DNA of 64,000 bases from Dehalococcoidales bacterium (lineage in GTDB: Bacteria > Chloroflexota > Dehalococcoidia > Dehalococcoidales > UBA5760): assembly GCA_034414575.1 (NCBI GenBank), contig DAOULZ010000011.1:14318-78317 (forward strand), given 5' to 3'. Below the pieces are notes generated by a model that was not told the origin of the DNA, did not search any database, and saw nothing but the letters and a program-made list of their open reading frames with translations. Every line of letters begins with the position of its first letter. The first letter of the stretch is position 1. This document shows positions 18,479-63,789 of the stretch, one piece after another. The translations under genes and the position numbers were made by a program.

Positions 18479-18507
18479 TTGACAAAAGTCCAATTCTAGT
18501 GTATAAT
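18479..18507 (+). promoter_or_regulatory. consensus promoter (TTGACA-17-TATAAT) heading the + strand glycan genes
   Basis: TTGACA at 18479-18484, a 17-nt spacer, TATAAT at 18502-18507. It sits back-to-back with the - strand promoter. Confidence 0.6.
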
Positions 18508-18561
18508 CGCTTCAGATGCCGTGGATAACGGCACGGCATTTGAGGCAGTCTTCGAGGCAAA

Positions 18562-18759
18562 ATGGCAGGATTAAAGGAAAAGATTAGGGCGCTGCGTGAG
18601 AAGAGAGGCTGGTCGCAAGAGGATTTGGCACGGGAGATAGGGGTTAGCCTGTCAACGATTCAGCGATGGGAGACAAGAGACTATAAGCCCTCTCGCTTGG
18701 CTCACCGAGAGCTGTCAAAACTGCTCAAAAAGGCAGGGATTGAGGAGAAAGAGGGGTAG
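18562..18759 (+). CDS. XRE-family HTH transcriptional regulator (65 aa)
   Basis: LREKRGWSQEDLAREIGVSLSTIQRWE is a canonical Cro/C1-type HTH. Confidence 0.8.
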   Translation: MAGLKEKIRALREKRGWSQEDLAREIGVSLSTIQRWETRDYKPSRLAHRELSKLLKKAGIEEKEG

Positions 18760-18891
18760 CCGGAAGGCCAGGGTGCTAAATCGGGTAGTAGGTAGGCGGC
18801 GCGTCTTAAAGAAGCATTATGGGGCACAGAAATAGACTGAGGTGGTGAGAGATAACACTATCGTGCTCTCAGGCCCCTCGGGAGGCGTAAG

Positions 18892-50410: not shown

Positions 50411-51322
50411 CTACGCTACGATCGGGGCCCGGCAAATCAGCACCGAGTACTCGGCATGCCTGGCCACTGTCTCCGCCACATTCCCTAACAGGAATGACTC
50501 GATGCCGGTTAGTCCCCTGGCTCCGAGCGTAATCAGGTCAGGTTGGTATTCTTTAGCAACCGCCAGGACAGACTCGGCGGCTCCTCCCCGCATGACTAAA
50601 GATAACGTTTTGTACCGTACCCTGGAAAACTGCCGTTCGCTTTCGGTCAATATTTTTCGAGCCTCTTCTTCTTCGGCTGCCTGAAGTTGGGCAACCAGCT
50701 CTTGATTAGCTTTAAGGTCAAGCGTCGGCGTTCTGATCACCGCTTCAATATGCGATTGAACCGCCGTCATCAGGATAACCTGACTGCGCGGTAGGGGAAG
50801 ACTCAGCAAAAACTGGGTTGCTATCTCTGAATAGCTGGAGCCGTCGGTAGCAAGCAGGACACGGCTGACGGAAGAAGTCTCCTTCTTAACCAGTAGAACA
50901 CTGGCATCGGTATGTCTCATAACCTTCTGGGCGACACCGCCGAGAAAGAACTGCGGAGAGTCGGTCAGCCCCTTGGCCCCCATCAAGATGAGGGAAGCAT
51001 CGTTTTCTTTAGCCGCCCTCAGAATTGATTCAGCCGGATTCCCCCAACGCACCAGGCTTTCCAGTCTCAGCCTGGTGGTACCAAGTTCCTGAATTGCCAT
51101 TTCCACCAAATTGGCAGCCTGTTCTCGCTGTCTTTCCTGCCTAGCGCTCCTTGCTGAAGCCTTACCTCTAAACAGGTCAAGACTCAACCCACCCAGGAAG
51201 CTGTGGTCAGGCACGACCGTCATAACCGTAGCCTGAGTCCCGCGAGGCAATTTGAGTGCCTTAAGCATACTTATAGCCATCTGAGAATATGGTGAACCGT
51301 CAATTACCATAAGAACCTTCAT
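50411..51322 (-). CDS. tandem universal stress protein (two USP domains)
   Basis: 303 aa. Two copies of the MKVLMVIDGS.../...LILMGAKGLT...GGVAQKV pattern are present. Confidence 0.8.
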   Translation of the reverse strand: MKVLMVIDGSPYSQMAISMLKALKLPRGTQATVMTVVPDHSFLGGLSLDLFRGKASARSARQERQREQAANLVEMAIQELGTTRLRLESLVRWGNPAESILRAAKENDASLILMGAKGLTDSPQFFLGGVAQKVMRHTDASVLLVKKETSSVSRVLLATDGSSYSEIATQFLLSLPLPRSQVILMTAVQSHIEAVIRTPTLDLKANQELVAQLQAAEEEEARKILTESERQFSRVRYKTLSLVMRGGAAESVLAVAKEYQPDLITLGARGLTGIESFLLGNVAETVARHAEYSVLICRAPIVA

Positions 51323-51394: not shown

Positions 51395-53437
51395 TCACCT
51401 CTCTAACTCTAAGGATGGTATAGCCTCCTTTACTGTGGCAACTGCCTCCGAACTAATTGCCTCCGCCGCCTTTAAGATACCCTCAGCCGCTTCAGCCGCT
51501 GCTGATTCCTCCGATACCCCGGTCTGTTCGGCTATTTCTTTAGCCGTCTCTATTGTCTTGGCGGTGGCGGCCGCCAGGTCGCCATGCGCCTCGGCAGTCC
51601 CCTGAATGATACCCTGGCTTGCCCCCAGTATGGCATCATACGGGTCCGCCCCCGCCCGGGTGGAGGCTTGCACCACACCTGTCACCACGGCAGAGGCCAC
51701 CTGCCCAACATCTACGGGTTTATCATCGGCAACATGGACAGCACCGCGCGCCATCTGCCGTGAAATTTCTGCTCCGTGCACCCTTACCTCTGCTTCCTTA
51801 CCCTTCCATATACCGTTCAGACCATTCTCCAAGGACTTGGCGATTCTCTTAGTTACCCGACGACCACGCATGGCGGCCATGGTAGCCACCCGGCCAATCT
51901 CCGCAATCTGGTAGGCGGTAACACCCAGGGCAGCATCCAGTCCTACTGGCACTTTCCTTAAATTGCCGAAGGGGAAATTGGCAGCCAGGTTAAAAGCCGG
52001 TACTGAGCTCATAGGTCGAGAGAGCTCCCGCGTCGGAAACATTAGTGATTCTAGCATTACTTCGCGACTTACTTCGCCTTCCTCACGCAGTCTCGCCAGC
52101 ATTGTCAGGGTAATAAGCCCGATAACAAAGGCAATGCCAAACAAAAAATCAAAACCAATCATACTGACGACTGGCAGCTGAGTAGAACCGGACGGAGCAA
52201 GCCAAGTGAGGGTCAGGTCAAATTGACGCGTGCTGAAGAAGGTGGCTAGTAAGCCCCCTACCAAAGGCCCCAAACCAGCTCCCAGGTTGGTGGCTAGGGA
52301 TGAAGTTGCTAGATAAGAGGTTGCCTCTCCTTTAGGGGCCATCTTCAAACCGATAGTGCCGATGGTGAGGGTTACCCCGGCGTTGGCAATACCGGCGAAT
52401 ATATGCAATATAAATAATAGGGGCATGGTAAGGAAGTATCTTTCCGGCATGGTGGTAAATATCCAGCCCATAATGACGAGCAGATAGAGCGAGGCGCATA
52501 TGGAGAGGACTACCTTATTGCCAAAACGGTCGACAAAATTGCCCCACACCCGCAGAAACAGTATGTTGAAGGCTTGCCCGATGATGCTGAGGACGATGAC
52601 CCAGGTTAGGGATAGCCCAAGCCGCTGGAGCATGTAGACAGCAAAGAATGGCACCGCCAGATTCAGGGCAAAGTTCCAAGAGAACAGAAACTGTATCAGC
52701 TGCCTGAAGTTTACGTCTTTAAGGGGTGCCGTAACTTTCTGCCAGAGGGAAGGTTGAGATCCGGTTACCGGCTGCATTAACGGCTCGGGCATACGCGACA
52801 TGAAGATGGGACTTAAAAGCCCGAGGCTCAAAGCGCCGAAGAGAAGCACGTAGGTATAGCCGAAGATAGCACTTCCTGCGGCGGCATGATTAAGCCAGTA
52901 ATCCACAAACAGGGCGGCTGATAGGCTGAAGGCGACACCGGTAGCCGTGGCAAAGGCCAGTCGTCTTGAAAAAAACCTGCCCAGTATTGCCTGTGGGACC
53001 AGGTCGCGAATCCAGCCATTCCAGGCAGCGTTGGTAGAGGCGTGAAAAAGGCCGCGGATGGCCATCAGTGCCAGCAGCAGTGATATCGCTCTCGCTCCAG
53101 GAATGGCCATAAATGTCGGGATGAGGGCGATTGGTACCCAGAACGACTGGGCGATAAACCAGCTAATTACCGCCATCGCCTTACGCTGCCGGAATTTTTC
53201 CACTAGGGAGATAGCGGGTAGCTGCAGGATTTGCATCAGAAATGGGAGCGCTGCCAGAACACCGATGTGCAGACTATCGGCGCCCAGCGCTAGGGCATAG
53301 GCTGCTAGGAAGCCGCTGGTGGTAATACTGTTAAAACCCAGGGACGCAGTCCCCTCAAGGGTTAACCAGCGCAGGCCGGAGGTTAACTCCGGCTCGGAGA
53401 TAGTGGGTTTAGGCTTAAAAATCTGGAGCAACTTCAC
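51395..53437 (-). CDS. MFS transporter with a ~200-aa C-terminal soluble Ala-rich extension
   Basis: About 12 TM helices span the first ~470 aa. A non-membrane tail follows, ending ...AAATAKTIETAKEIAEQTGVSEESAAAEAAEGILKAAEAISSEAVATVKEAIPSLELER. Confidence 0.7.
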   Translation of the reverse strand: MKLLQIFKPKPTISEPELTSGLRWLTLEGTASLGFNSITTSGFLAAYALALGADSLHIGVLAALPFLMQILQLPAISLVEKFRQRKAMAVISWFIAQSFWVPIALIPTFMAIPGARAISLLLALMAIRGLFHASTNAAWNGWIRDLVPQAILGRFFSRRLAFATATGVAFSLSAALFVDYWLNHAAAGSAIFGYTYVLLFGALSLGLLSPIFMSRMPEPLMQPVTGSQPSLWQKVTAPLKDVNFRQLIQFLFSWNFALNLAVPFFAVYMLQRLGLSLTWVIVLSIIGQAFNILFLRVWGNFVDRFGNKVVLSICASLYLLVIMGWIFTTMPERYFLTMPLLFILHIFAGIANAGVTLTIGTIGLKMAPKGEATSYLATSSLATNLGAGLGPLVGGLLATFFSTRQFDLTLTWLAPSGSTQLPVVSMIGFDFLFGIAFVIGLITLTMLARLREEGEVSREVMLESLMFPTRELSRPMSSVPAFNLAANFPFGNLRKVPVGLDAALGVTAYQIAEIGRVATMAAMRGRRVTKRIAKSLENGLNGIWKGKEAEVRVHGAEISRQMARGAVHVADDKPVDVGQVASAVVTGVVQASTRAGADPYDAILGASQGIIQGTAEAHGDLAAATAKTIETAKEIAEQTGVSEESAAAEAAEGILKAAEAISSEAVATVKEAIPSLELER

Positions 53438-53507
53438 GAAGACCAGACCTCAGGTTTAAATTACGGCCCTCTCTGCCTCGTCGAAATAGCTATGATAGCT
53501 AACGGCG

Positions 53508-53813
53508 CTACGGCTTTTCAGTTTTTGGCTGTTGCTTTCTACGCTTCCAACCCAGCATCACTAGCAGCTCGCCTACTTCAGCATCACTTATTTCGTCCTT
53601 AAGGGGCATATCGGGGTGAATCTTATACTTATTCTGCCGACCGACTTTCGTTTTTGATATATACCCCGCTTCCTCAAGGTCCATAATTATGCGGTGGGCC
53701 GTCCTCTCTGTTACCCCAATAGTGTCCCCAATCTCCCGGGCGGTAAGATTCGTGTGTTTAGCAATAGTCGCTAAAACCAGTCCATGATTCGTAATGAAAG
53801 CCCACTCACTCAT
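53508..53813 (-). CDS. small winged-HTH transcriptional regulator, copy A
   Basis: The ORF track starts at 53858. I prefer ATG at 53813 (MSEWAFITNHG...), which has AGGAGG 5 nt upstream and matches the start of copy B. HTH region: LTAREIGDTIGVTERTAHRIIMDLEEAGYISK. Confidence 0.8.
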   Translation of the reverse strand: MSEWAFITNHGLVLATIAKHTNLTAREIGDTIGVTERTAHRIIMDLEEAGYISKTKVGRQNKYKIHPDMPLKDEISDAEVGELLVMLGWKRRKQQPKTEKP

Positions 53814-53960
53814 GCTAACCTCCTTCAAAAAATAGTTATAAAAAGCCCTAAAAACCACTTGACAAATTGCGGAATTTAGTTATAATAATATTCTAGAAAT
53901 GTATTTCTAGTAATAGTTATGTTGTTATATGATACCAGACATTTAACGAAAAATCAAGCC
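53536..53960. repeat. direct repeat copy A (regulator gene + promoter/operator block)
   Basis: Aligns by eye with 61096-61510. 85 of 100 positions match in the hand-aligned stretch 53541-53640 versus 61101-61200. There is one ~11-nt indel just upstream of the start codon. Confidence 0.85.
53859..53957. promoter_or_regulatory. face-to-face promoter pair flanking the palindromic operator CTAGAAAT-GT-ATTTCTAG
   Basis: P(+): TTGACA at 53859-53864, 16-nt spacer, TATAAT at 53881-53886. Palindrome at 53893-53910 (8+2+8, perfect). P(-): TTGATT (reverse complement of 53952-53957), 17-nt spacer, TATCAT (reverse complement of 53929-53934). Confidence 0.6.
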
Positions 53961-54161
53961 CCATAACAGTAGTTTGCGACAGGAAGTGAAACAAGAAATA
54001 ACATGAAAAGACCTGACCAGAGTAAGGCTAAAACAAAGAAAATCGAGGTTAAAGCTAAAAAGAAGGTAAGCTAACTATCGGGCATAGGATCCCTGCTTTC
54101 CCAGCCTCCCAGACAAGAAAACCGACATAAAGGGCTTCAGTCAGAAAAGAGAAATGTAAAA

Positions 54162-54626
54162 ATGGCTAAGACTTACAAGAAAATACTGGTACCATTGGAT
54201 GGTTCACAATTAGCCGAATGGGCACTTGAAGATGCTAAGGCAGTAATATCAGGCAAGAAAGACTGCTTGATGACGCTGCTCAGAGTAGTTGAGCCGCTAT
54301 TAGTAGCTCATCTGGTCGATTATGTAAACGTTGAAGAGTATCGAACTGCCGAGGAGAGGAACGAGGCTGAGGCGAAAGACTACCTCCTCAGCATTGCGAA
54401 GGAGCTAACCAGGGCTGGTCTGAGGGTTAAGATTGAACTAGTGGTTGGTGGTGCGGCAGATAGTGCGATACTGAACTATGCCAAGGAAAATAAAATAGAT
54501 CTCATCGTCATGAGCACACATGGAAGGTCAGCGGTCCATCGCTGGATCTTTGGTAGTGTCGCACAGAGAGTACTACGTCATTCTCCCATACCTGTATTAA
54601 TAGTGCCGCTCTCTGGCTTTCGATAA
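54162..54626 (+). CDS. uspA: universal stress protein (single domain)
   Basis: KILVPLDGSQLAE...DLIVMSTHGRSAVHRWIFGSVAQRVLRHSPIPVLIV. Confidence 0.85.
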   Translation: MAKTYKKILVPLDGSQLAEWALEDAKAVISGKKDCLMTLLRVVEPLLVAHLVDYVNVEEYRTAEERNEAEAKDYLLSIAKELTRAGLRVKIELVVGGAADSAILNYAKENKIDLIVMSTHGRSAVHRWIFGSVAQRVLRHSPIPVLIVPLSGFR

Positions 54627-54763
54627 ACTAAATGATTTCTTGTCTAGAAGGCTCCTCGCCACTGCCATTTAAAAATACTATACATCGAATCAAGGATTAC
54701 AGCATAAACTCGAAAATAAACATAAAGATGACTTAATAACAAAATAACTAGAGGAGGATGACA

Positions 54764-56745
54764 ATGAATAAAAGAAAATTTATTTCTACGGCGCTATTAC
54801 TAACTTCGCTCTCACTTGCTTTTATCTTCATGACCGCCAAGCCAGTTTTTGCCGCTTCGGTAACCTTATCGCCGGACCAGGGCAAAACAGGGACAACAAC
54901 ACATGTCAGCGGAGCCGTTTTACAGCCTCTGCCTCCTACACAATCTATTTCGCCTATAATACTTCCCATGAATCGAGGACGAGCGCTACGGTTGCCAGCG
55001 ATGGCAGTATATCTCGCTCTATTACCGTTCCGGAAGTACCAGCCGGCTCATATACCGTTAGAGTAGCCACTTCTTCCGAATCTGCCAGCGATACTTTCAC
55101 GGTAACACCACAGCTCGATCTCAGTAAAACTTCGGTCGTTGTAGGCGAACAGGTTACGATTAATGGCACCGGCTTTAGAGCCAGCCGTAGTGTTACCATC
55201 AGGTTTGATAATCGAACCGCCGTGACCACGTCTACCAATTCTAAGGGTAGCTTTAGCGTAAAGTTCAGCATACCGGAGAGTAGTTACGGCAGTCACGAGA
55301 TTACCGCTGATGACGGTACTAATCGGCTATCGATCAGCGTATCTGTTAAGCAGTCGGTTACCATTTCCCCTAAGTCCAGGTCGGTCGATACTAAGCTGAC
55401 CGTTACGGGAACAGGGTTCAGGGATGAGCGGCCAATAACCATTACCTTTGACGGTGACGAAGTTGATACCAGTCCTGCCTCGGTCGACACCGATGAGGAT
55501 GGAAGCTTCACCGCTTCATTCCAGGTACCCACCTGCGTTAATGGCACGGTAGAAATAGTGGCTGGTGATGGCAAATACACCGCCACCGCTGAATTTACCA
55601 TTCGTGCCAGCATTACTCTTGACCCGGGCTCGGCCAATGTTGGGGATACGGTTAGTATTATCGGGAATGGGTTTCGCGCTAACCGGCTGATAATACTAAC
55701 CTTTGACGATGAGGAGGTCGACAGTATACCAGCAACCATTCGCTCAGACAGTAAGGGCTGCTTTGAAGTCGACTTTACCGTTCCCCCCAGCACCGATGGT
55801 ACTCACGAAATAAGGGCGGATGATGATGCTGAGGTTGCTAAGGTTAACTTCACTACTTTGTCGGCGATCAGTCTCAGTCCGACCGGCGGACCAATCAATG
55901 CCGAGGTCACGATAGAAGGTACCGGATTCGGTAGCGGCAGGATCGTGACCATCGAATTTGATGATGACCACGTTAGGACCAGCGCCACTGATGCCGAAGG
56001 GAGTTTCGTGACTGAATTTGTGGTTCCACAGACCAATAGCGGTAAATATAACGTCGTTGCCAGCGACGGCGTAACTACTGCCGGTGCCGTTTTTACCGTT
56101 ACTACCAGCATCGAGGTTACACCGGTAACCGGTCATGTCGGCACCGCCATCACGGTAACTGGGACCGGTTTTACTGGTGCCGTAACTGTTAGGTACGATG
56201 GCTCAGTCGTTGCCACTACTACCGCCGATGCTAACGGAGCCTTTTCTATATCTTTTAGTGCTCCCCAGAGCATCCACGGTCATCACACGATCACCGTAAG
56301 TGGCGTGATTAACACTATTGAAGCTACCTTTACCATGGAATCAGACGCTCCTTCGACACCGACACTCCTGTTGCCGGAAAGCGGTGTCAGACAGAATTCA
56401 CGACCGTCGTTTAGCTGGGGAGTAGTAAACGATCCCAGTGGTATCACCTATACACTGCAGATAGCTATCGATGACAGTTTCAATACTTTGCTGCTGGAAA
56501 AACCAGGGCTAACCCAGTCTCCATACAGGCTTGCCCGCGAAGAAGGACTCAGCTCAACCGATAGCGATGCCCCGTATTACTGGCGGGTTAAGGCGGTTGA
56601 CGGCGCCTCAAACGAAAGTGCCTGGTCAACGCCACGTTCCTTCTATGTCAGATTTCTTCCGCAGTGGGCAATATACGTCATTATAGCGGGAGTTGCAGTT
56701 GCAATAAGTGTAGCCGCTACCCGAAGAGTTTACCGACGCAGGTAA
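54764..56745 (+). pseudogene. cell-surface protein with six IPT/TIG-like Ig domains + FN3-like domain + C-terminal TM anchor, interrupted by a 1-nt frameshift near 54917
   Basis: ORFs 54758..55066 and 55222..56745 are one gene. The downstream frame is already open from ~54775. Inserting one G at ggagccG^gtttt gives ...HVSGAGFTASASYTIYF, matching the G.GF motif of the other five repeats (INGTGFRAS, VTGTGFRDE, IGNGFRAN, EGTGFGSG, VTGTGFTGA). Signal peptide ...AKPVFAAS. C-terminal IYVIIAGVAVAISVAATRRVYRRR. Confidence 0.75.
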
Positions 56746-56820
56746 GAGAGATGGTAAGTAACCATAAGGACCGGGAAGCGGGACCTTAGGTTGAGATAGT
56801 TTACACAGGAGGTATTTACA

Positions 56821-57312
56821 ATGGCAATGGAGAGACGGAGAAGAGATAGAAGCTTGGTTCCCTGGAGACCATTCCAGGACTTACAAGAGATGGAACGGCG
56901 CTTTGACGACATCTTCGGCCGGCCGTTCTGGCCCATGATGTGGAGGCGTATCCCTACAATTGAACCAGGCTGGCTGCCGGCTATAGAGGTGTTTGAGAAG
57001 GAGGACAGGTTTGTGGTGAAGGCTGACCTCCCTGGTATGAAACAAGAGGATATAAGCGTCTCAGTTGTAGGTGATACACTGACTATCAAGGGGGAGAGAA
57101 AGTCTGAGACTGAGGTCAAGGAAGAAGACTATCATTGCTGTGAGCGTTCGTATGGTAGCTTCTCCCGTTTGATATCTCTTCCCTCCAACGTGGATGCGAA
57201 AAAGATCGAGGCTAGTTATGCGGAGGGAGTGCTAGAGATTATTATTCCCAAAACCCCAGAGATTAAACCGAAGAAGGTCACAATAACAACCAAGAAGAAA
57301 GAAGCAAAGTAA
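56821..57312 (+). CDS. hsp20: Hsp20/alpha-crystallin small heat-shock protein
   Basis: PAIEVFEKEDRFVVKADLPGMKQEDISVSVVGDTLTIKGERK...GVLEIIIPK. AGGAGG upstream. Confidence 0.9.
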   Translation: MAMERRRRDRSLVPWRPFQDLQEMERRFDDIFGRPFWPMMWRRIPTIEPGWLPAIEVFEKEDRFVVKADLPGMKQEDISVSVVGDTLTIKGERKSETEVKEEDYHCCERSYGSFSRLISLPSNVDAKKIEASYAEGVLEIIIPKTPEIKPKKVTITTKKKEAK

Positions 57313-57533
57313 ATTGGATGGAGACTATTGTCCCGCTTCCCATGTCCCCTTCTGAAACTAGTCATGGATGTGGAAGATATGTGTGGTGAGACAGCGATGG
57401 ACGGATAGTATTTACGGAACCAACATTGTATGAAATCATCGAACGAGATCTCGACCTATGATTCATGAATATGATAGATACGCTACGATTTCTTCAACAA
57501 CAAGTAATTTGCCGCGTTTAGAAAGGTAGTGAA

Positions 57534-58007
57534 ATGGATAAAGATAGAGTCAGTGAACCTGGTGCGGCTGAGGCTAAAAAGAACGACAGAATACACATGA
57601 AACCCCTTCCGGATATTCTGGATGAGATGGATGCTAATATTCGAGCCGCAGCTGAGGCGGCCAGAAGGGCAGAGGAGGCAGCCAAGGTCGCGAAAGGGGC
57701 TGCTGCTGCCGCCACTGCGGCTTCGAAGGAGGCGCAAGGTGCTGCGGAGAAAGCAGCGGAGGAGGCTACCAGACAGGCTCGTGAAGCCTTGGGGGAAGCA
57801 GCGAAAAAAGCTAGCGAGGCAGCCGAGGATGCAAAGAGCGCAGCCAATGAAGCTGCCAGGGAAGCAACCAAGAAGGCAAGAGAGATAGCCGAAGAGGTGA
57901 AGGATCTGGCTCTAGAGCTGGCCTTGGTGATCAGAAACGCTAACATACATAGCTCTGAAGCCTTTGTAAAAGAGATTGATGCTTTTAGGAACAAATGGTC
58001 AAAGTAA
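57534..58007 (+). CDS. Ala/Glu/Lys/Arg-rich helical protein, short paralog (157 aa)
   Basis: It shares the N-terminal block RIH.KPLPDILDEMDANIRAAAEAARRAEEAAK with the 59175 gene (1 difference in 33 aa). No TM segment. The - strand ORF 57518..58159 is its compositional shadow. Confidence 0.65.
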   Translation: MDKDRVSEPGAAEAKKNDRIHMKPLPDILDEMDANIRAAAEAARRAEEAAKVAKGAAAAATAASKEAQGAAEKAAEEATRQAREALGEAAKKASEAAEDAKSAANEAAREATKKAREIAEEVKDLALELALVIRNANIHSSEAFVKEIDAFRNKWSK

Positions 58008-58199
58008 ACTGTAGATTCTTTTTGTTCTGGAAATACGGTATCGAAAATGTATATATGTTTCACGGCACGACTAGAGGTAATCCCGCAGGCTAATTTGTGT
58101 CTAGATTGCAAGGCTAGTCGAGCAAAGAATGACCTGCCCTCGATATTTGAAACAGGCAATCTTAGGTCAAACGCTTAAAAGAAAGGAGTCGATATTGAG

Positions 58200-58667
58200 A
58201 TGAAACTTCGATTAGGGTTGGCACTATTACTGATATCCGTACTGGTATTGAGTGTCGTAGGATGTAATAGTGGGGCGTCTGGCGTAAATCTGGTTGCTAC
58301 CATGCATGGCTGCGGTGGTAGCGGCAGTGGTGCCGGTGAGATCCCCACGCATTACGAGTTAAGTTGTGAAACCACTATCTGTAACCAGGGGAGTGGGACA
58401 GCTAAGGATGTAAGGGTATTCGTTGAACCATCATCGACCAATCAGGTCTTACAGACGATGGAAGTGGAGCCGAGCCAAAAGCAAAAGCCCGTCACCCTGG
58501 AAGCAGGTGAATGTGAAACCTTCGTGGTTAATTGGGAATACGATTACACTGGTACTTCCAGCGAGGAAGTTTACCAATTAATCAATCAATATGTACTTCA
58601 TGCCACCTGGACAGACAAAAACGGTAAACAAGTCACAAAGGTTCTCGGTGAAGGAGGTTCTCATTGA
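58200..58667 (+). CDS. lipoprotein, beta-sandwich-like
   Basis: Signal peptide plus lipobox LSVVGC; 155 aa. AAAGGAG upstream. Confidence 0.65.
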   Translation: MKLRLGLALLLISVLVLSVVGCNSGASGVNLVATMHGCGGSGSGAGEIPTHYELSCETTICNQGSGTAKDVRVFVEPSSTNQVLQTMEVEPSQKQKPVTLEAGECETFVVNWEYDYTGTSSEEVYQLINQYVLHATWTDKNGKQVTKVLGEGGSH

Positions 58668-58680
58668 AAGGAGGTAAAAC

Positions 58681-58923
58681 ATGACTAAATCAACACCCTA
58701 CGAAATTATTGAAACAAGGAATAGGCCGAAAGCGCAGAAAAGGAGACTAGGGTTCTCAGGGACATTTGAAGAAGCAAAAATTAGGGCTCAGGAAGAGGCG
58801 AAGAAAAACATAGGTGTTCGATATTCCGTATTCCGTGAGGGTTCTTCTGTAGCCGAATTTCAAGCTTACTATAGAAAAACCGTGAAATGTCCCAAGTGTG
58901 GCGAAATAATCCCCATAGAGTGA
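58681..58923 (+). CDS. small basic protein with a C-terminal CxxC knuckle
   Basis: 80 aa. AAGGAGG lies 6 nt upstream. Ends KCPKCGEIIPIE. Confidence 0.5.
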   Translation: MTKSTPYEIIETRNRPKAQKRRLGFSGTFEEAKIRAQEEAKKNIGVRYSVFREGSSVAEFQAYYRKTVKCPKCGEIIPIE

Positions 58924-58975
58924 GCGGTCAGCTCGTTTTCTTATACCACGGACACAAAAAACGTAAACCAGACTA

Positions 58976-59004
58976 TTGACAATCTGCAAATTGTCTATTA
59001 AAAT
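58976..59004 (+). promoter_or_regulatory. promoter TTGACA-17-TAAAAT containing the inverted repeat GACAAT-N6-ATTGTC
   Basis: TTGACA at 58976-58981, a 17-nt spacer, TAAAAT at 58999-59004. The inverted repeat spans the -35 box and the spacer. It lies ~170 nt upstream of the long Ala-rich gene. Confidence 0.5.
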
Positions 59005-59174
59005 CAACTCCTCCAAGTCGGAGCTTGTAGTAATCAATAGCTCAGCCGACCCTTCTAGTAAATGGGTGCAAAGGAGGGTGTGCCTATTGAAGCATTCGCA
59101 AGTTACAAAGGCTGCAACTTTTCTATTTGATACTCTCTCTACTTCCTCTACTATCTCTTGTAAGGAGGGCTGAA

Positions 59175-60989
59175 GTGGCTAAGAACACAGGCGAAACGCC
59201 CGGTGAAAAGGGGCCAGGATATGTTGATAGAATACATGCCAAACCCCTTCCAGACATCCTCGATGAGATGGACGCCAACATCAGAGCCGCCGCTGAGGCA
59301 GCTAGAAGGGCTGAGGAAGCAGCTAAGGCAGCCAAAGGGGCCGCTGGCGCTGCCACCAAGGCGTCTGATGAAGCTGCCAAACGGGCTGAAGAGGCGCGCT
59401 TAGCTGGAGAGAAGGCGGCAGCAGATGCTACCAAAGCCGCCAGCGAAGCAGCTGCCAGAGCTGAGGAGACAGCGCGGGCAGCCAGGGAAGCAGCCGAGGA
59501 AGCTGCTAGGAAAGCCGATGAGGCAGACAAGGGCACTAGAGAAGCGGCTGAGGCATTCAGGCGTGCGGCGGAGGAGGCTGCCACTAGAGCCGATGAGGCA
59601 AGCAAAGCGGCCGTAGCGGCAGCCAAAGCAGCCGTAAAGCAGGCTGAAGAGGCAGCCGCTGAGGCAGCCAGAAGGGCTGAAGAAGCCGCCACTAGAGCCG
59701 ATGAGGCAGCTGAGGCAGCCACCCGAGCTTTAGAGGAGGCGGCCAGAAGAGCCGAAGAAGCCGCTGCTAAAGCTAGTGGCAGAGCTGACGAGGCAATCAT
59801 AGCTGCTGAAGCAGCCACCAAGGCATCGGAGGCAGCTAGCCAGGCTGCCGCGGCGGCAACCAGAGAGGCACAAGAATCTGCCAGAAGAGCCGAAGAAGCT
59901 AGCTTAGCAGCACAACAGGCTGCTGAAGGTGCTAGTGAAGCCGCTGAAGGAGCCGCCCAACGGGCTGAAGAGGCTGCCTTGAAAGCTGAGGAAACAGCTA
60001 GTGCCGCGAAGTATGCTGCCGAAGAGGCTACCAAAAAGGCGGAGGATGCAGACCTAGCAGCTAGAGAATCGGCACTGGCGGCAACTAAACTTGCTGAAGA
60101 GGCCGCTAGGAGAGCTGAGGAGGCAGCTTTGTCGGCAAAAGCAGCGGTTGAAGCAGCTATCGAAGCTGCTAATGCTGCCATTAAGATGGCTGAGGAGAGC
60201 ACTAAAGCCGCCAAGGATGCTACCGAAGAGGTCGCACTTAACCTTACCCCGGAAACCGCTCGACGGGCTGACGAGGCTGGTAGAAAAGCCAAAAGAGCAG
60301 CGGCATCCGCCTTCAGGGCCGCGGAGAAAACTACCAGGGAAGCTGAGCTTGCTGACACAGCCGGGGACATCGCTATCGCCGCTGCCGAAAAGGTATCAGG
60401 GCCGCTCGCTGAGCGAGTTGATGAGGCGGGTAGAGATGCCAAAGCGGCCGCTGAAGCTGGATTTGAGGTAGCTGACAAGACTATTGGAGCAGCCGAGCAG
60501 GCAGATATCGCCGGGGACGATGCCGTTGGCGCTGCGGTTAGGGGTATCGAGCAACTGATAGGTAAGGCAGAGAGTGCCGCCAGACAGGCTAGCGAAGCAG
60601 GCGTAATTGCCGTTGGTGAAGCCACCAGAAGGGCCGATGAAGCAACCAAAGCGGCACTGGCAGCAACAAAGGCATCGGAGGCTGCTGAAGCCGGTGTTAG
60701 AGCAGTTCGAGAGGAAGCCACCGCAGCTCAGAAAACCGGCCTGAGGGCTGAGGAAGCAGCCGCTAAAGCAGCTAAAGCAGCCGAGAGTGCCGTAAAGGCA
60801 TCTGAAGAGTTAGCGGCTGAAGCTGCCGAGAAGGCTGAAGAAGCAGCCGCAAAGTTTGACCTCGTGCCGAAACTGGTGAAGGAAGTACTTGGTTCCCGAC
60901 AGTTCCTGCTCATTATCATACTAGCTGTCGTCGGGGCAATCTTTGCTGCCGTGGCCATTAGCGTGGGCATAAGCTCTCTCGGCCCGTAA
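59175..60989 (+). CDS. Ala/Glu/Arg/Lys-rich helical protein, long paralog, C-terminal tail anchor (~604 aa)
   Basis: The ORF track starts at 59127. I prefer the in-frame GTG at 59175 with AAGGAGGG 5 nt upstream, which gives an N-terminus parallel to the short paralog. There is no signal peptide. The C-terminus QFLLIIILAVVGAIFAAVAISVGISSLGP is a single TM helix. Confidence 0.7.
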   Translation: MAKNTGETPGEKGPGYVDRIHAKPLPDILDEMDANIRAAAEAARRAEEAAKAAKGAAGAATKASDEAAKRAEEARLAGEKAAADATKAASEAAARAEETARAAREAAEEAARKADEADKGTREAAEAFRRAAEEAATRADEASKAAVAAAKAAVKQAEEAAAEAARRAEEAATRADEAAEAATRALEEAARRAEEAAAKASGRADEAIIAAEAATKASEAASQAAAAATREAQESARRAEEASLAAQQAAEGASEAAEGAAQRAEEAALKAEETASAAKYAAEEATKKAEDADLAARESALAATKLAEEAARRAEEAALSAKAAVEAAIEAANAAIKMAEESTKAAKDATEEVALNLTPETARRADEAGRKAKRAAASAFRAAEKTTREAELADTAGDIAIAAAEKVSGPLAERVDEAGRDAKAAAEAGFEVADKTIGAAEQADIAGDDAVGAAVRGIEQLIGKAESAARQASEAGVIAVGEATRRADEATKAALAATKASEAAEAGVRAVREEATAAQKTGLRAEEAAAKAAKAAESAVKASEELAAEAAEKAEEAAAKFDLVPKLVKEVLGSRQFLLIIILAVVGAIFAAVAISVGISSLGP

Positions 60990-61058
60990 TATAGTAGCGG
61001 CCCATACGCGGGATGTTCAAAGGAGGAGGGGAAAGAGCCAACGTAACCCTGGAGCAGG

Positions 61059-61373
61059 TTAAATCACACTACTGCTTCTCGGTTTTAGGTGTCTTTTTCT
61101 GCGCTTCCAGCCTAGCATCACCAGCAGCTCACCTACTTCGGCGTCGCTTATTTCGTCCTTGAGCGGCATGCCGGGGTGGATTTTATACTTATTCTGCCGG
61201 CCGATTTTAGTTTTTGATATATACCCCGCTTCCTCGAGGTCTATTATTATACGATGGGCCGTCCTCTCGGTTACCCCAATATTGTCTCCAATTTCCCTGG
61301 CGGTAAGGTTCGGGTGTTTAGCAATAGTTGCTAAGACCAGTCCATGGTTCGTAATGAACGTCCACTCACTCAT
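61059..61373 (-). CDS. small winged-HTH transcriptional regulator, copy B
   Basis: ATG at 61373 (MSEWTFITNHG...) with GGAGGA upstream. There are 6 differences from copy A in the first 93 aa, and the C-terminal tails diverge. Confidence 0.8.
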   Translation of the reverse strand: MSEWTFITNHGLVLATIAKHPNLTAREIGDNIGVTERTAHRIIIDLEEAGYISKTKIGRQNKYKIHPGMPLKDEISDAEVGELLVMLGWKRRKRHLKPRSSSVI

Positions 61374-61510
61374 TTTGATCCTCCGGCGAAACATTTTCCA
61401 AAAACCACTTGACAAACTCTGAAATTTATTTATAATAATTTTCTAGACATATATTTCTAGTAACATATTTGTTGTAATATGATACCAGAAACTTATTAAA
61501 AAATCAAGCC
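61096..61510. repeat. direct repeat copy B
   Basis: See copy A. The offset is 7560 nt in the CDS part and 7550 nt in the promoter part. Confidence 0.85.
61409..61507. promoter_or_regulatory. second face-to-face promoter/operator block
   Basis: P(+): TTGACA at 61409-61414, 16-nt spacer, TATAAT at 61431-61436. Imperfect palindrome CTAGACATATATTTCTAG at 61443-61460 (2 mismatched positions). P(-): TTGATT (reverse complement of 61502-61507), 17-nt spacer, TATCAT (reverse complement of 61479-61484). Confidence 0.6.
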
Positions 61511-61611
61511 TCGGCAAATGGTTCTAATTGGTAGGCAAACGTGATGGAGGGAAGGTAGCCTGGGCAGTAAGGCCTGGATTATACAGCTCTCAAAATGGAA
61601 GAGGTGATGAA

Positions 61612-61920
61612 ATGATTAGAGTGACGAGTTCGTTAGCGGAGAAAATGCTGGGTAATGTCCCTGAGGATAAGCGCTTTTGGTGCTGCGACGGGAAGGTAAT
61701 CAAAAACCTGAGGGAATTAGTGACGTTCCTCCACAGTATGAGTGAAGAGACCTTTCGCTACCATTCGACCGAGACCGGCAGTGACTTTGTTAATTGGATC
61801 AGAGACGTAATTGGTGATGAAAAGCTCGCCAGGGATATACAAAGTAGCCATAACCGGTTTCAGGCAGCGAAGAGGCTGACTGACAGGATCGCCTGGCTGG
61901 AGAGTAAGATCGTAGCTTAA
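61612..61920 (+). CDS. hypothetical 102-aa protein
   Basis: The ORF track starts at 61528. ATG at 61612 has GGAAGAGGTGA upstream. Sequence: MIRVTSSLAEKMLGNVPEDKRFWCCDGKVIKNLRELVTFLHSMSEETFRYH...DFVNWIRDVIGDEKLA. It is the first gene downstream of the copy-B P(+). Confidence 0.5.
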   Translation: MIRVTSSLAEKMLGNVPEDKRFWCCDGKVIKNLRELVTFLHSMSEETFRYHSTETGSDFVNWIRDVIGDEKLARDIQSSHNRFQAAKRLTDRIAWLESKIVA

Positions 61921-62034
61921 GCAGGCCAGCCGGCTCCGGCAGTGACTGATAGGCCCGGGCCACACTGAAGGTAAACTAAACGATGACAGAGGTTTCACAT
62001 ATCAGCAGCAACTGAATCATAGAGGGAGGAACAT

Positions 62035-62364
62035 GTGATAAACCTGTGCTTAAGGAAAAAGAGTGAAGCCAAGAGACTATCTGAGTCGGTGCAGAATTAT
62101 CTGAGGCGACAGTTTATGCTTCAGCGAGAATACATCGAAAAGCTCAGGTGTTTTGAAATAGATGGCCTCTTCCGTGAACAGCCAGTAAGACGAATTCGCA
62201 TCTTCAATCCGGATCTAGCGAAAAAGGATAGCCTGGCTATTCGTACTAATTCGGACCTGGAGCTCCACCCGGAGATACTGGTCTTCGAGGGGCATATTGA
62301 CGCCGAGGGTAAAATCTACTTTGCTGACCGGAGGTCAACGTCAGGAAAGGCAGGCTGTAAATAG
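62035..62364 (+). CDS. hypothetical protein
   Basis: 109-aa ORF with a GTG start and no recognisable motif. Confidence 0.35.
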   Translation: MINLCLRKKSEAKRLSESVQNYLRRQFMLQREYIEKLRCFEIDGLFREQPVRRIRIFNPDLAKKDSLAIRTNSDLELHPEILVFEGHIDAEGKIYFADRRSTSGKAGCK

Positions 62365-62442
62365 CTTGGGAGCCGGAGGGTTACCGGGATCAGGCGTAAT
62401 CCATCGTGACAACACAGAGAGAAAAGGAGAAACGAAAATAAA

Positions 62443-63789
62443 GTGAACACATCACCGAGGGCCACAAAAAGCCGGTCAGCATATGGTAGTCAAGCAAAAA
62501 CAGCCAGTGAAACACACGGCGAGGGTGTCGCCGAAGAGGAACCTCCTGGCAAAACTGACACCTTCAGTAGTTTTGACGAAGAACCCCCGGGTAGAAGCGC
62601 CGCCAAACGATATAGGCTTTTCGGTCACGTACCGGATAACGCCTGGAACGATTGGAGGTGGCATTTTCGTAACCGCATCACCACGATTGATGAACTGGCA
62701 AACTTTATCCCGCTATCAAGCGAAGAGCGGGCGCAGCTCAAGCTGGTAACCGTGAAGTATCCCCTTTCCATTACTCCCTATTACCTTTCGCTGATAGACC
62801 TGAACGACCCCGACGACCCGATTAGAAAACAGGCGATTCCCTCCATCCTGGAGATAACGATGGGTATGATGGGCCGGGAAGACCCCCTCGATGAAAAGGG
62901 AGACACGGTCGTTCCCGGACTGGTTCACCGCTATCCTGACCGGGTCTTAATGGTACTTACCGATATCTGCCCCATGTTCTGTCGTCACTGCACTCGCAAG
63001 CGGGAATGGCAAAGTGGCGGTTGGGTGCGGACTCCAGCCGAGATTAGAGCCATGCTTGATTATATTCGGCAGCACAAAGCCATCAGGGATGTCATCATCT
63101 CCGGCGGCGACCCGCTGACGCTCTCTACGCCCCGGCTGGAGGGGGTCATCTCCCGAATTAGGGCTATAAAGCATGTTGAAATCATCCGTATCGGTACCAG
63201 GTTTCCGGTGGTATTGCCACAGCGTATTGACCACGAACTGTGCCGCATGCTGTCGCGATACAGCCCGATATGGCTTAACACGCACTTTAACCACCACCAC
63301 GAGATTACCCCGGAAACCGCCGCCGCCTGCGACCGTTTGCTCCGCAGCGGGGTTCCGGTTAACAACCAGTCGGTGCTCCTGCGTGGGGTGAACGACAGCG
63401 TTACCGAGCAGATGAGGTTGTGCCATGGGCTGCTCAGGATTAAGGTGCGCCCCTACTACCTGTTCCAGTGTGATGAGGTACAGGGCACCGAGCACCTGCG
63501 TACTACGGTGGAGGTTGGGCTCAACATCATCGAGGGGATGCGCGGACACACCTCGGGGCTGGCGGTGCCCACCTTCGTTGTTGACCTGCCTCAAGGGGGC
63601 GGTAAGGTGTCCCTGCAACCGGACTACGTTGTCGCCAAGAAGAGGGGAGAACTTATGCTCCGGAACTACGAGGGCCGACTCTTTCGCTGTCGGAATCCGA
63701 AGGTGTCGGCAGACCTAGAGCCGATACCGGAACCACTGAGGAACCTGGATAATTCCGACGCCGGGTTACTGGTAGAAACAGGAGTCTAA
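62443..63789 (+). CDS. kamA: lysine 2,3-aminomutase family radical SAM enzyme (KamA/AblA-like) with a ~60-aa low-complexity N-terminal extension
   Basis: Radical SAM CPMFCRHCTRK, WNDWRWHFRNRI, ISGGDPL and HFNHHHEIT; 448 aa; GTG start. Confidence 0.85.
   Translation: MNTSPRATKSRSAYGSQAKTASETHGEGVAEEEPPGKTDTFSSFDEEPPGRSAAKRYRLFGHVPDNAWNDWRWHFRNRITTIDELANFIPLSSEERAQLKLVTVKYPLSITPYYLSLIDLNDPDDPIRKQAIPSILEITMGMMGREDPLDEKGDTVVPGLVHRYPDRVLMVLTDICPMFCRHCTRKREWQSGGWVRTPAEIRAMLDYIRQHKAIRDVIISGGDPLTLSTPRLEGVISRIRAIKHVEIIRIGTRFPVVLPQRIDHELCRMLSRYSPIWLNTHFNHHHEITPETAAACDRLLRSGVPVNNQSVLLRGVNDSVTEQMRLCHGLLRIKVRPYYLFQCDEVQGTEHLRTTVEVGLNIIEGMRGHTSGLAVPTFVVDLPQGGGKVSLQPDYVVAKKRGELMLRNYEGRLFRCRNPKVSADLEPIPEPLRNLDNSDAGLLVETGV

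Follow-up and report, generated by a model that had tools for sequence, protein, structure and literature searches.

Based on the recurrent arrangement of a small winged helix-turn-helix (wHTH) regulator gene, two predicted promoters facing each other and a palindrome between them, we propose that a 64-kb stretch of DNA from an uncultured Dehalococcoidales bacterium (hereafter the window, in whose positions all coordinates are given) carries two tandem repressor-operator modules, one for each of two neighboring stress or osmoprotection operons, and not a mobile cassette; we give this reading a probability of roughly 0.7. The two regulator genes, regA and regB, are old paralogs on which purifying selection is strong, and the non-coding DNA beside them is alike because of selection on promoter and operator elements and not because the duplication is recent.

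Two diverged copies of one regulatory module

The starting point was a pair of segments in the same orientation, ~7.55 kb apart, which the original prediction had aligned by eye and which repeat search, BLASTN and MAFFT alignment all recover, with borders at 53508-53970 and 61069-61520. The repeat search resolves the pair into two parts, one of 291 nt (53523-53813 versus 61083-61373; 87% identity, offset 7560 nt) and one of 111 nt (53850-53960 versus 61400-61510; 84% identity, offset 7550 nt), the difference in offset pointing to a 10-nt indel between them. The self-comparison that had been proposed for fixing the borders, run as BLASTN of 53401-54200 against the whole window, yields only one second copy (53508-53960 / 61069-61510; 82.2% identity over 454 columns, E value 5e-128), and in the MAFFT alignment the similarity dies away past ~53970 / ~61520. 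The principal features of the two modules are as follows:

53508..53813, minus strand: regA, 101-aa winged-helix regulator of copy A (open reading frame and translation; exact copy on the independent Logan contig L091)
53859..53886, plus strand: P_div-A, sigma70-type promoter TTGACA-16-TATAAT matching 12/12 consensus positions, directed away from regA to usp (promoter scan)
53891..53913, no strand: candidate operator A, TTCTAGAAAT-GT-ATTTCTAGTAA, a perfect 10-2-10 palindrome with its core CTAGAAATGTATTTCTAG at 53893-53910
53929..53957, minus strand: P_reg-A, TTGATT-17-TGgTATCAT with an extended -10, directed to regA, face to face with P_div-A (promoter scan)
61059..61373, minus strand: regB, 104-aa winged-helix regulator of copy B, convergent with AlaL (5' two-thirds confirmed on the independent contig L092)
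61409..61436, plus strand: P_div-B, TTGACA-16-TATAAT, 12/12, directed to orfB1-orfB2-KamA (promoter scan)
61441..61463, no strand: candidate operator B, TTCTAGACAT-AT-ATTTCTAGTAA, with its core CTAGACATATATTTCTAG at 61443-61460 and one core mismatch
61479..61507, minus strand: P_reg-B, TTGATT-17-TGgTATCAT, directed to regB (promoter scan)

The DNA of the two copies is 13-18% diverged, the longest exact run they share is 26 bp, and 46% of the synonymous sites of regA and regB differ. Their products differ at six of the first 93 residues, exactly as had been counted from the sequence, and the protein is conserved far better than its DNA: by the Nei-Gojobori method synonymous divergence (dS) is 0.71 and nonsynonymous divergence (dN) 0.043, giving an omega of ~0.06. 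On these values rests our statement that the genes are old paralogs under selection, and the low dN/dS also supports the earlier view that both copies are functional genes and that neither is a decaying duplicate.

Between each regulator gene and the operon that leads away from it lies a control region of ~150 bp. P_div-A and P_div-B are the sole 12/12 sigma70 matches in the 9.2 kb scanned, and all four promoters hold equal relative positions in the two copies. The palindrome, of 18-22 bp and with the form CTAGAAAT-N2-ATTTCTAG around a core GAA-N6-TTC, starts 6 bases past the -10 element of P_div, at its predicted +1, and corresponds to about +12 to +30 of P_reg; the predicted starts of the two promoters are ~30 nt apart and the palindrome fills their overlap. 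It occurs at only two sites in the window, where shuffled sequences would lead one to expect none (operator A has no mismatch, and 0.15 matches are expected per shuffled window), and a single core base distinguishes operators A and B. When 14 related control regions are aligned and scored against copy A, conservation reaches 1.00 for the P_div -35, 0.99 for the P_div -10, 0.90 for the operator core, 0.95 for the P_reg -35 and 0.94 for the P_reg -10 with its TG, as against 0.47-0.74 elsewhere. Since conservation peaks on these elements, the non-coding similarity between A and B is due to functional constraint; the switch region and the palindromes that had been proposed for each copy are thus borne out by both the promoter scan and the alignment.

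The same box marks the regulator family at large. An exact GAA-N6-TTC is present in 56 of 73 distinct 200-nt regions upstream of regulator genes, compared with 4.8 (maximum 12) in dinucleotide shuffles, and its position is mostly fixed, the main group having it at -92 to -96, a second group at ~-82 and an arginine-linked subgroup at ~-31. For most loci in the main groups the box stands 3-6 nt past a near-consensus outward promoter, and more distant loci have TTGACT-17-TATAAT as the equivalent of P_reg. Across 725 kb of related loci (referred to below by L numbers) there are 12 perfect 20-bp palindromes of the operator type, 11 of them adjoining a regulator, and CTAGAA-N6-TTCTAG with at most one mismatch is found almost only beside regulators, the exceptions being an orphan copy in L013/L014 and one single-mismatch site far from the regulator in L068. 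Moreover, residue 38 of the recognition helix, which is T or A, changes in step with the bases 5' to GAA, CTA/CCT versus CAT/GAT: with a TERT helix, 42 of 70 half-sites have CTA or CCT and none has CAT, and with a TERA helix 19 of 44 have CAT or GAT, in counts that ignore phylogeny. This covariation is suggestive of direct readout of the operator by the helix.

A role for the palindrome as an RNA hairpin was considered and rejected, as the predicted stems have little stability (-6.4 and -3.3 kcal/mol) and that of copy B is interrupted. A search against Rfam returned no family in 53300-62500 at an E value of at most 1 and none in the whole window at the gathering threshold, so the leaders are not known riboswitches, and a tRNA search likewise found none. 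The P_reg -10 region ATTTCTGGTA (53929-53937 / 61479-61487) resembles the operator half-site ATTTCTAGTA, and the spacer of the outward promoter in L013/L014 contains a second small palindrome, AAATTTC-GAAATTT; both are possible auxiliary sites.

The placement of the palindrome also bears on the sense in which the regulator might act. Some small wHTH proteins activate transcription, and a site between two promoters could favor one of them by recruiting or stabilizing RNA polymerase there, with the half-site-like ATTTCTGGTA overlapping the P_reg -10 as a potential contact. We consider such an activator or dual regulator highly improbable, given that the outward promoter, already a 12/12 consensus match, should need no activator, that a palindrome at the predicted +1 is in the classic position for steric repression, and that its position relative to the -10 element is kept across subfamilies.

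A minimal winged-helix regulator family

Profile searches recognize only the helix-turn-helix (HTH) core of the regulator. The Pfam models MarR_2, HTH_24 and MarR match this core of RegA at E values of ~1e-6, over residues ~10-57 only, with scores just above threshold for MarR_2 (29.0 bits, cut-off 27) and MarR (25.9 bits, cut-off 24.6); RegB scores 27.8 and 28.0 bits, respectively. Both proteins thus have a core of the kind described by the MarR profiles, and at 101 and 104 aa both fall short of the full MarR build of ~140-170 aa with its N- and C-terminal dimerization helices and ligand pocket. An AlphaFold2 (AF2) model of moderate confidence (pLDDT 74) predicts helices at 3-19, 25-32 and 36-48, a wing at 52-65 and one short helix at 77-86. 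The top Foldseek matches of this model are AspA of pNOB8, MarR-family and ArsR/SmtB proteins (TM-score ~0.5-0.6, identity at most 26%), while a profile search of the PDB ranks the wHTH domain of the archaeal riboflavin kinase/RbkR (E value 1.7e-5) and MarR proteins best. The model accordingly recalls minimal wHTH proteins of the MarR/ArsR-SmtB/PadR-like kind, such as AspA, in its three helices, beta-wing and C-terminal helix; it differs from them in the low identity and in a C-terminal ELLxxLGWK motif followed by a basic tail, rich in R/K, which is invariant across the regulator family and has no counterpart in those families. The HMM search proposed in the original prediction, extended to the PDB and Foldseek, therefore gave generic wHTH matches only, with the HTH core near threshold, and no specific family in Pfam, NCBIfam, PDB or Foldseek. 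No ligand-binding domain was found with Pfam or in the AF2 model, and the recognition helices of RegA and RegB are identical.

A first search with regA returned 718 homologs, those listed being 70-94% identical, nearly all ~100 aa long and generically named, and the few with a source name come from Dehalococcoidales or Dehalococcoidia metagenome-assembled genomes (MAGs). A profile search retrieved 1727 representatives of 50%-identity clusters at E values of at most 1e-10, whose source names are mutually contradictory (Lrp, ArsR, BirA, PaaX, IclR, DeoR). We propose that the regulator defines an uncharacterized, minimal (~100 aa), highly conserved wHTH family that is mostly confined to Dehalococcoidia. 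In the Dehalococcoidia literature on acetyl-beta-lysine, compatible solutes and regulators of Hsp20 or Usp we found nothing on this regulator, and the exact sequences of regB, the CxxC protein and AlaL have no database record. A known defense system was also considered and set aside, PADLOC giving generic wHTH-level matches for the regulator and none for the proteins encoded between the copies.

One subgroup of the family (L001, L002, L023, L024, L027, L030, L031, L042, L044, L049, L052 and L059) has a control region of a different kind, TTGACACAGCC...TTGTGCAAAACTA, in which the GAA-N6-TTC box at ~-31 lies within a larger palindrome. In the two of these loci that have gene calls (L001 and L002) the regulator is co-directional with, and just upstream of, argJ-argB-argD-argG-argH, which hints at a role for this subgroup in arginine biosynthesis.

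Gene content, conserved partners and synteny

The genes between the two copies were annotated as follows:

54162..54626, plus strand: usp, universal stress protein (Pfam Usp, E value 6e-32), the first gene past P_div-A, with a leader of ~270 nt
54758..56745, plus strand: Ig/TIG surface protein with a signal peptide and a C-terminal transmembrane (TM) segment (Pfam TIG, Big_6, Ig_Rha78A_N)
56821..57312, plus strand: hsp20, small heat-shock protein (Pfam HSP20, E value 5e-27), the third gene, ~2.9 kb from P_div-A
57534..58007, plus strand: AlaS, 157-aa protein rich in Ala and Glu, with the same N-terminal motif as AlaL (RIHxKPLPDILDEMDANIR); no Pfam match
58200..58667, plus strand: predicted lipoprotein with lipobox VVGC; no Pfam or NCBIfam match and no homolog in the 96 other loci compared
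58681..58923, plus strand: CxxC protein, 80 aa, with a C-terminal CPKC motif; no Pfam match
58976..59004, plus strand: predicted internal promoter ahead of AlaL, sigma70-like TTGACA-17-TAAAAT, 11/12, without a full operator
59175..60989, plus strand: AlaL, repetitive protein of ~604 aa, rich in Ala and anchored by a C-terminal TM segment; no Pfam match

This content agrees with what had been read from the sequence (usp, the Ig protein and HSP20, all three upheld by Pfam, two related Ala-rich proteins, a lipoprotein and a CxxC protein), except that a frameshift in the Ig gene had been missed: relative to its intact ortholog in L014, it has a 1-nt deletion near 54917 that splits it into reading frames at 54758-55066 and 55222-56745. 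As the same frameshift is present on L091, which also confirms the regA-usp junction, it is present in the reads and represents either a pseudogene or a shared error. The most likely start of AlaL is the GTG at 59175, after AAGGAGG, rather than the TTG at 59127. AlaL has full-length orthologs in L093 and L095-97 (in L093 596 aa, 55% identity, with the same N-terminal motif and C-terminal anchor), AlaS is related to the 111-aa first operon gene (Ala111) of L093 and L017, and a homolog search with AlaS gave 20 weak matches, unnamed or misnamed, that were uninformative. A homolog of the CxxC protein (71% identity, interrupted) lies beside the orphan operator of L013/L014. Between AlaS and the lipoprotein gene, a 43-aa reading frame (58047-58178) contains ARLEVIPQANLCLDCKA and by eye is reminiscent of the second half of a zinc finger of the TraR/DksA type.

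On the outer sides of the two modules lie the following genes:

51395..53437, minus strand: MFS transporter, following regA on the same strand
50411..51322, minus strand: tandem Usp, after the MFS gene on the same strand
61612..61920, plus strand: orfB1, 102 aa, with a weak likeness to the C-terminus of DUF5752 (Pfam E value 2.7e-4, below cut-off)
62035..62364, plus strand: orfB2, 109 aa, conserved in first or second place in the KamA operon of 13 related loci; no Pfam or NCBIfam match
62443..63789, plus strand: KamA-family aminomutase, a radical-SAM 2,3-aminomutase (Pfam Radical_SAM and LAM_C)
from ~63805, plus strand: the first of the Ddl-like ATP-grasp genes, which runs off the end of the window

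The pair described earlier as lysine 2,3-aminomutase and ATP-grasp is hence real as a KamA-family aminomutase followed by the start of a Ddl-like gene, and the specific assignment to lysine is uncertain: the protein scores 331.9 bits against the NCBIfam model of the KamA subfamily, TIGR00238 (cut-off 199.2), and 466.8 bits against AblA, TIGR03820, below the cut-off of 525.4, with the Glu/Arg 2,3-aminomutase models not far behind (432.9/411.8 bits). In relatives (L003, L093, L095) the genes after KamA encode two Ddl-like ATP-grasp ligases, a GNAT and a GNAT-deacetylase fusion; the 159-aa GNAT, three genes past KamA at a position outside the window, has generic GNAT matches only. A KamA-family aminomutase and a GNAT acetyltransferase in one operon recall the Abl pathway, in which the salt-induced ablA and ablB of methanogens, needed at high salinity, make the osmolyte N-epsilon-acetyl-beta-lysine (PMC1224877). 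Here, two Ddl-like ligases and a GNAT-deacetylase fusion come in between, which makes plain acetyl-beta-lysine an improbable product; an acetylated beta-amino-acid peptide may be made instead. Homologs of orfB1 occur in TreT/GT4/GH57 clusters beside other members of the regulator family, and a remnant is found at the same spot in L021. The C-terminal ~170 aa of the MFS protein form an Ala-rich cytoplasmic tail like the AlaL repeats, with ~30% identity over 182 aa to the L093 ortholog of AlaL. Elsewhere in the window, at 18480-18760, between genes for cell-envelope polysaccharide biosynthesis, a consensus-like promoter (TTGACA...TATAAT) precedes a GC-rich hairpin (GCCGTG...CACGGC) and a small reading frame that by eye looks like an Xre-type HTH protein.

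We then examined the neighborhoods of the regulator in 98 related loci. A KamA-family aminomutase lies near the regulator in 20 loci, and in 16 a 680-aa MFS transporter stands just downstream on the same strand, often followed by a tandem Usp. The commonest first gene past the outward promoter family-wide, found in 25 loci (e.g. L035, L028, L053, L068) and absent from this window, encodes a ~140-aa putative membrane protein that has several hydrophobic stretches and matches nothing in Pfam. Smaller subsets of paralogous loci have clusters of TreT trehalose synthase, GT4, GH57, an orfB1-like protein and tandem Usp, or have Asp23, and Ala-rich proteins recur beside the regulator. Trehalose, Usp and Asp23 are classical stress functions. 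Based on the KamA, transporter, Usp, trehalose synthase and Asp23 neighbors, we propose that the module probably governs an osmotic, desiccation or general-stress regulon and not a heat-shock regulon, and that clustered genes in the KamA, MFS and TreT loci may make or transport compatible solutes. hsp20, which had been taken as part of the regulon, is no conserved partner, being found in none of the 96 other loci, and the same count of zero holds for the lipoprotein.

These partners bear on the choice of a known counterpart. EctR1 of Methylomicrobium alcaliphilum and CosR of Vibrio are MarR-type repressors of osmolyte genes, EctR1 being divergent and autoregulated (10.1101/845297). They are small wHTH repressors that adjoin, and are often divergent from, genes for the synthesis or transport of osmolytes; the window regulator, a putative repressor, is divergent from the KamA/Ddl/GNAT operon, a candidate for solute synthesis, and precedes an MFS transporter, and its paralogs adjoin trehalose synthase. 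EctR1 and CosR bind a pseudo-palindrome in the intergenic region, the position at which the palindrome is a predicted site here, and they too have no obvious ligand pocket, their signal not having been identified (10.1101/845297). The window protein differs in its length (101 aa versus ~140-170) and in having no MarR-type N- and C-terminal dimerization helices, only its HTH core matching the MarR profiles near threshold, with no specific homology detected; its locus differs in the solute pathway and in the face-to-face promoters with one common operator. Repressors of this type would nevertheless fit the recurrent partners better than the RheA-hsp18 pair of Streptomyces, which had been named as the closest analog and which our comparison leaves as an architectural analogy only. 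By the available evidence, the module appears to be a demonstrable member of neither type.

The analogy with RheA underlies a further possibility, namely that the regulator is an intrinsic thermosensor mainly for hsp20, the other genes being passengers. RheA of Streptomyces albus is an autoregulated repressor, encoded divergently from hsp18, that responds to a physical cue with no ligand involved, and its operator, in the intergenic region common to both genes, covers the -10 element and transcription start (PMC11754652). In comparison, the palindrome here lies at the P_div +1 and at +12 to +30 of P_reg, as placed from consensus hexamers, the regulator has no ligand domain, as would be expected of a direct physical sensor, and hsp20 does lie within the block behind promoter A. 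However, the regulator is not divergently adjacent to a small heat-shock gene, hsp20 being the third gene ~2.9 kb from the promoter; no other regulator-family locus has an hsp20; the recurrent neighbors are genes for solute synthesis, transporters, Usp and Asp23; and the Pfam, NCBIfam and PDB searches revealed neither a heat-shock regulator family nor a sequence relationship to RheA. The RheA operator sequence is also not known to be related to the window palindrome. A heat switch is hence very unlikely.

A second regulator is missing from all 98 related loci, of which 31 span 10 kb or more, and what separates the regulator from the KamA operon in them is at most the Ala-rich genes. Close relatives, with 82-87% DNA identity and one regulator each, show three arrangements. 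In the first (L015) the regulator, MFS and tandem Usp genes run one way and KamA the other, with variants in L013/L014, L019 and L021 that add orfB2 and, in L021, the orfB1 remnant. In the second (L093) the same leftward set faces Ala111-AlaL (596 aa)-orfB2-KamA-Ddl-Ddl-GNAT, with L095-97 the same apart from the absence of MFS. In the third, on the short contigs L011, L012 and L017, the regulator faces Ala-rich genes and the leader matches 53985-54039 of the window. The window agrees with these in its outer flanks and in the order from AlaL to orfB2-KamA, to which it adds usp, Ig, hsp20, AlaS, lipoprotein and CxxC genes between the leader and AlaL, and regB with its control region and orfB1 between AlaL and orfB2. 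We therefore propose that the tandem arrangement is likely to be a lineage-specific rearrangement of one conserved single-regulator stress locus. The block can also hardly be called a self-contained cassette, as copy A apparently serves the operon to its right and copy B the next one, while L093 and L095-97 have one operon with one regulator. In the gene tree, regA, regB and the regulators of L011, L012 and L015 group at 100% bootstrap, are unresolved inside and are not separated by locus type, which is compatible with gene conversion or repeated duplication. In L014 (1669-1802) and L013 (1292-1425), an orphan promoter/operator block with a relic of the regulator 5' untranslated region (UTR) and ribosome-binding site, and with no regulator gene, lies directly upstream of an intact Ig gene (88% aa identity) and downstream of the interrupted CxxC gene; the relic indicates that regulator-promoter modules have been duplicated and have decayed before in this clade.

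Relatives with a single regulator and without the intervening 7.5 kb, whose existence had been anticipated, are thus at hand (L013-L015, L019, L021), and could be read as the excised state of a cassette that is lost or amplified by RecA-dependent recombination at the direct repeats. Recombination between A and B would leave a regulator with the MFS gene on one side and orfB1-orfB2-KamA on the other, and L021 and L013-15 have just this order or one close to it; clustering of the regulator paralogs by lineage and not by locus type fits gene conversion among copies, and the orphan block of L013/L014 attests to the duplication and loss of modules. We nevertheless hold this explanation to be very unlikely, and the idea of excision or amplification by homologous recombination to be weakly founded. 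The repeats are neither long nor near-identical, given the 13-18% divergence, the 26-bp longest match and the dS of 0.71; Pfam and NCBIfam detect no integrase, transposase or recombinase domain within 53.5-62.4 kb; and single-copy loci were found only in lineages with 13-18% DNA divergence, which are species-level lineages and not alleles of the same population. Furthermore, other relatives keep AlaL in the operon without a second regulator, so that no one clean deletion relates the arrangements, and most of the non-coding similarity falls on promoter and operator elements. The GC profile of the block is heterogeneous (0.43-0.59), and as the flanks are equally so there is no clear sign of foreign origin.

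As no other locus has two regulator copies, the tandem could in principle be an assembly chimera that joins two loci or strains within the conserved regulator gene. Two Logan contigs of run SRR14802572 match the window at 100% identity, L091 over 53366-55350 and L092, which ends inside regB, over 61175-62990, and the segment 60990-61175, from the 3' end of AlaL to the 3' third of regB, is supported by the window itself alone. Against such a join, this independent assembly reproduces both flanking junctions, MFS-regA-usp and regB-orfB1-orfB2-KamA, without a difference; the identical runs between A and B, of at most 26 bp, are too short to mislead k-mer assemblers; and AlaL directly ahead of orfB2-KamA, as in L093 and L095-97, is the ancestral order. 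We regard an artefact as very unlikely.

A proposed switch and its implications

Taking the two-module reading as the basis, we posit that a regulator dimer most likely binds the 18-22-bp palindrome of each module. Bound at the +1 of P_div, it would occlude RNA polymerase and keep the neighboring operon off; bound at about +12 to +30 of the weaker P_reg, it would hinder the regulator's own promoter and so bring about negative autoregulation. In copy A, P_reg would also drive the MFS transporter and the downstream tandem Usp, and the accessory stress genes (usp, Ig, hsp20, AlaS, lipoprotein and CxxC) would be placed behind the outward promoter. Under stress the repressor would leave, both promoters would be freed and the strong outward promoter would fire; as it faces the weak regulator promoter, its firing could lower regulator synthesis further and sharpen the switch. 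With identical recognition helices and near-identical operators, RegA and RegB probably cross-regulate both operons.

Several points weigh against this proposal. The repeat, the purifying selection, the layout of promoters and operators with its conservation throughout the family, and the synteny are observed, and from position and conservation we infer binding, repression, autoregulation, the type of stress and transcriptional interference; the start sites of P_div and P_reg are predictions from consensus hexamers only, and the covariation of helix and operator takes no account of phylogeny. The operon from usp to CxxC is deduced from the absence of strong promoters and terminators, and its intergenic gaps of 130-220 nt could hide promoters, so that hsp20 may escape operator control. 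The aminomutase scores below the AblA cut-off, which makes the osmolyte link indirect, and the Ala-rich proteins belong to no recognized family. Some members of the regulator family adjoin housekeeping genes (an arg operon, ribF/tyrS), so the family is not uniformly stress-linked. As for the origin of the tandem, the ancestor that received the insertion could have been L093-like or L021-like, and the gene tree of the closest clade does not say whether A and B are sisters.

A bolder version, which we consider unlikely, would make the regulator a ligand-independent physical sensor that might, for example, bind DNA through its basic C-terminal tail and let go as cytoplasmic ionic strength rises, so that between the face-to-face promoters it would form a possibly bistable switch. 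Were it correct, this compact osmostress switch would govern osmoadaptation as its master regulator throughout the subsurface Dehalococcoidia, the KamA/Ddl/Ddl/GNAT operon would make a so far undescribed acetylated beta-amino-acid peptide solute, and duplication of the regulator-promoter module would be a route by which the Ig protein, hsp20 and the Ala-rich proteins were recruited into the regulon.

The logic of an autoregulated winged-helix repressor with a divergent operon is itself already familiar, and no concept is overturned. What appears to be new is a minimal wHTH family, restricted to one phylum, that has a defined operator and promoters in an unusual face-to-face layout and would control a partly novel set of stress genes. 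To our knowledge, almost nothing is known of transcriptional control in uncultured sediment Dehalococcoidia, and the locus offers a concrete candidate regulator-operator pair, whose family numbers over 1,700 cluster representatives, whose box is GAA-N6-TTC and whose promoters keep a fixed geometry. Among the genes of its candidate stress regulon are those of a probable new solute pathway and of a family of Ala-rich tail-anchored proteins; the operator may be used to predict regulon members in MAGs, and the compact module of consensus promoter and operator could become a genetic part. The system may thus prove useful both in annotating and engineering Dehalococcoidia and in finding a possible new solute pathway.

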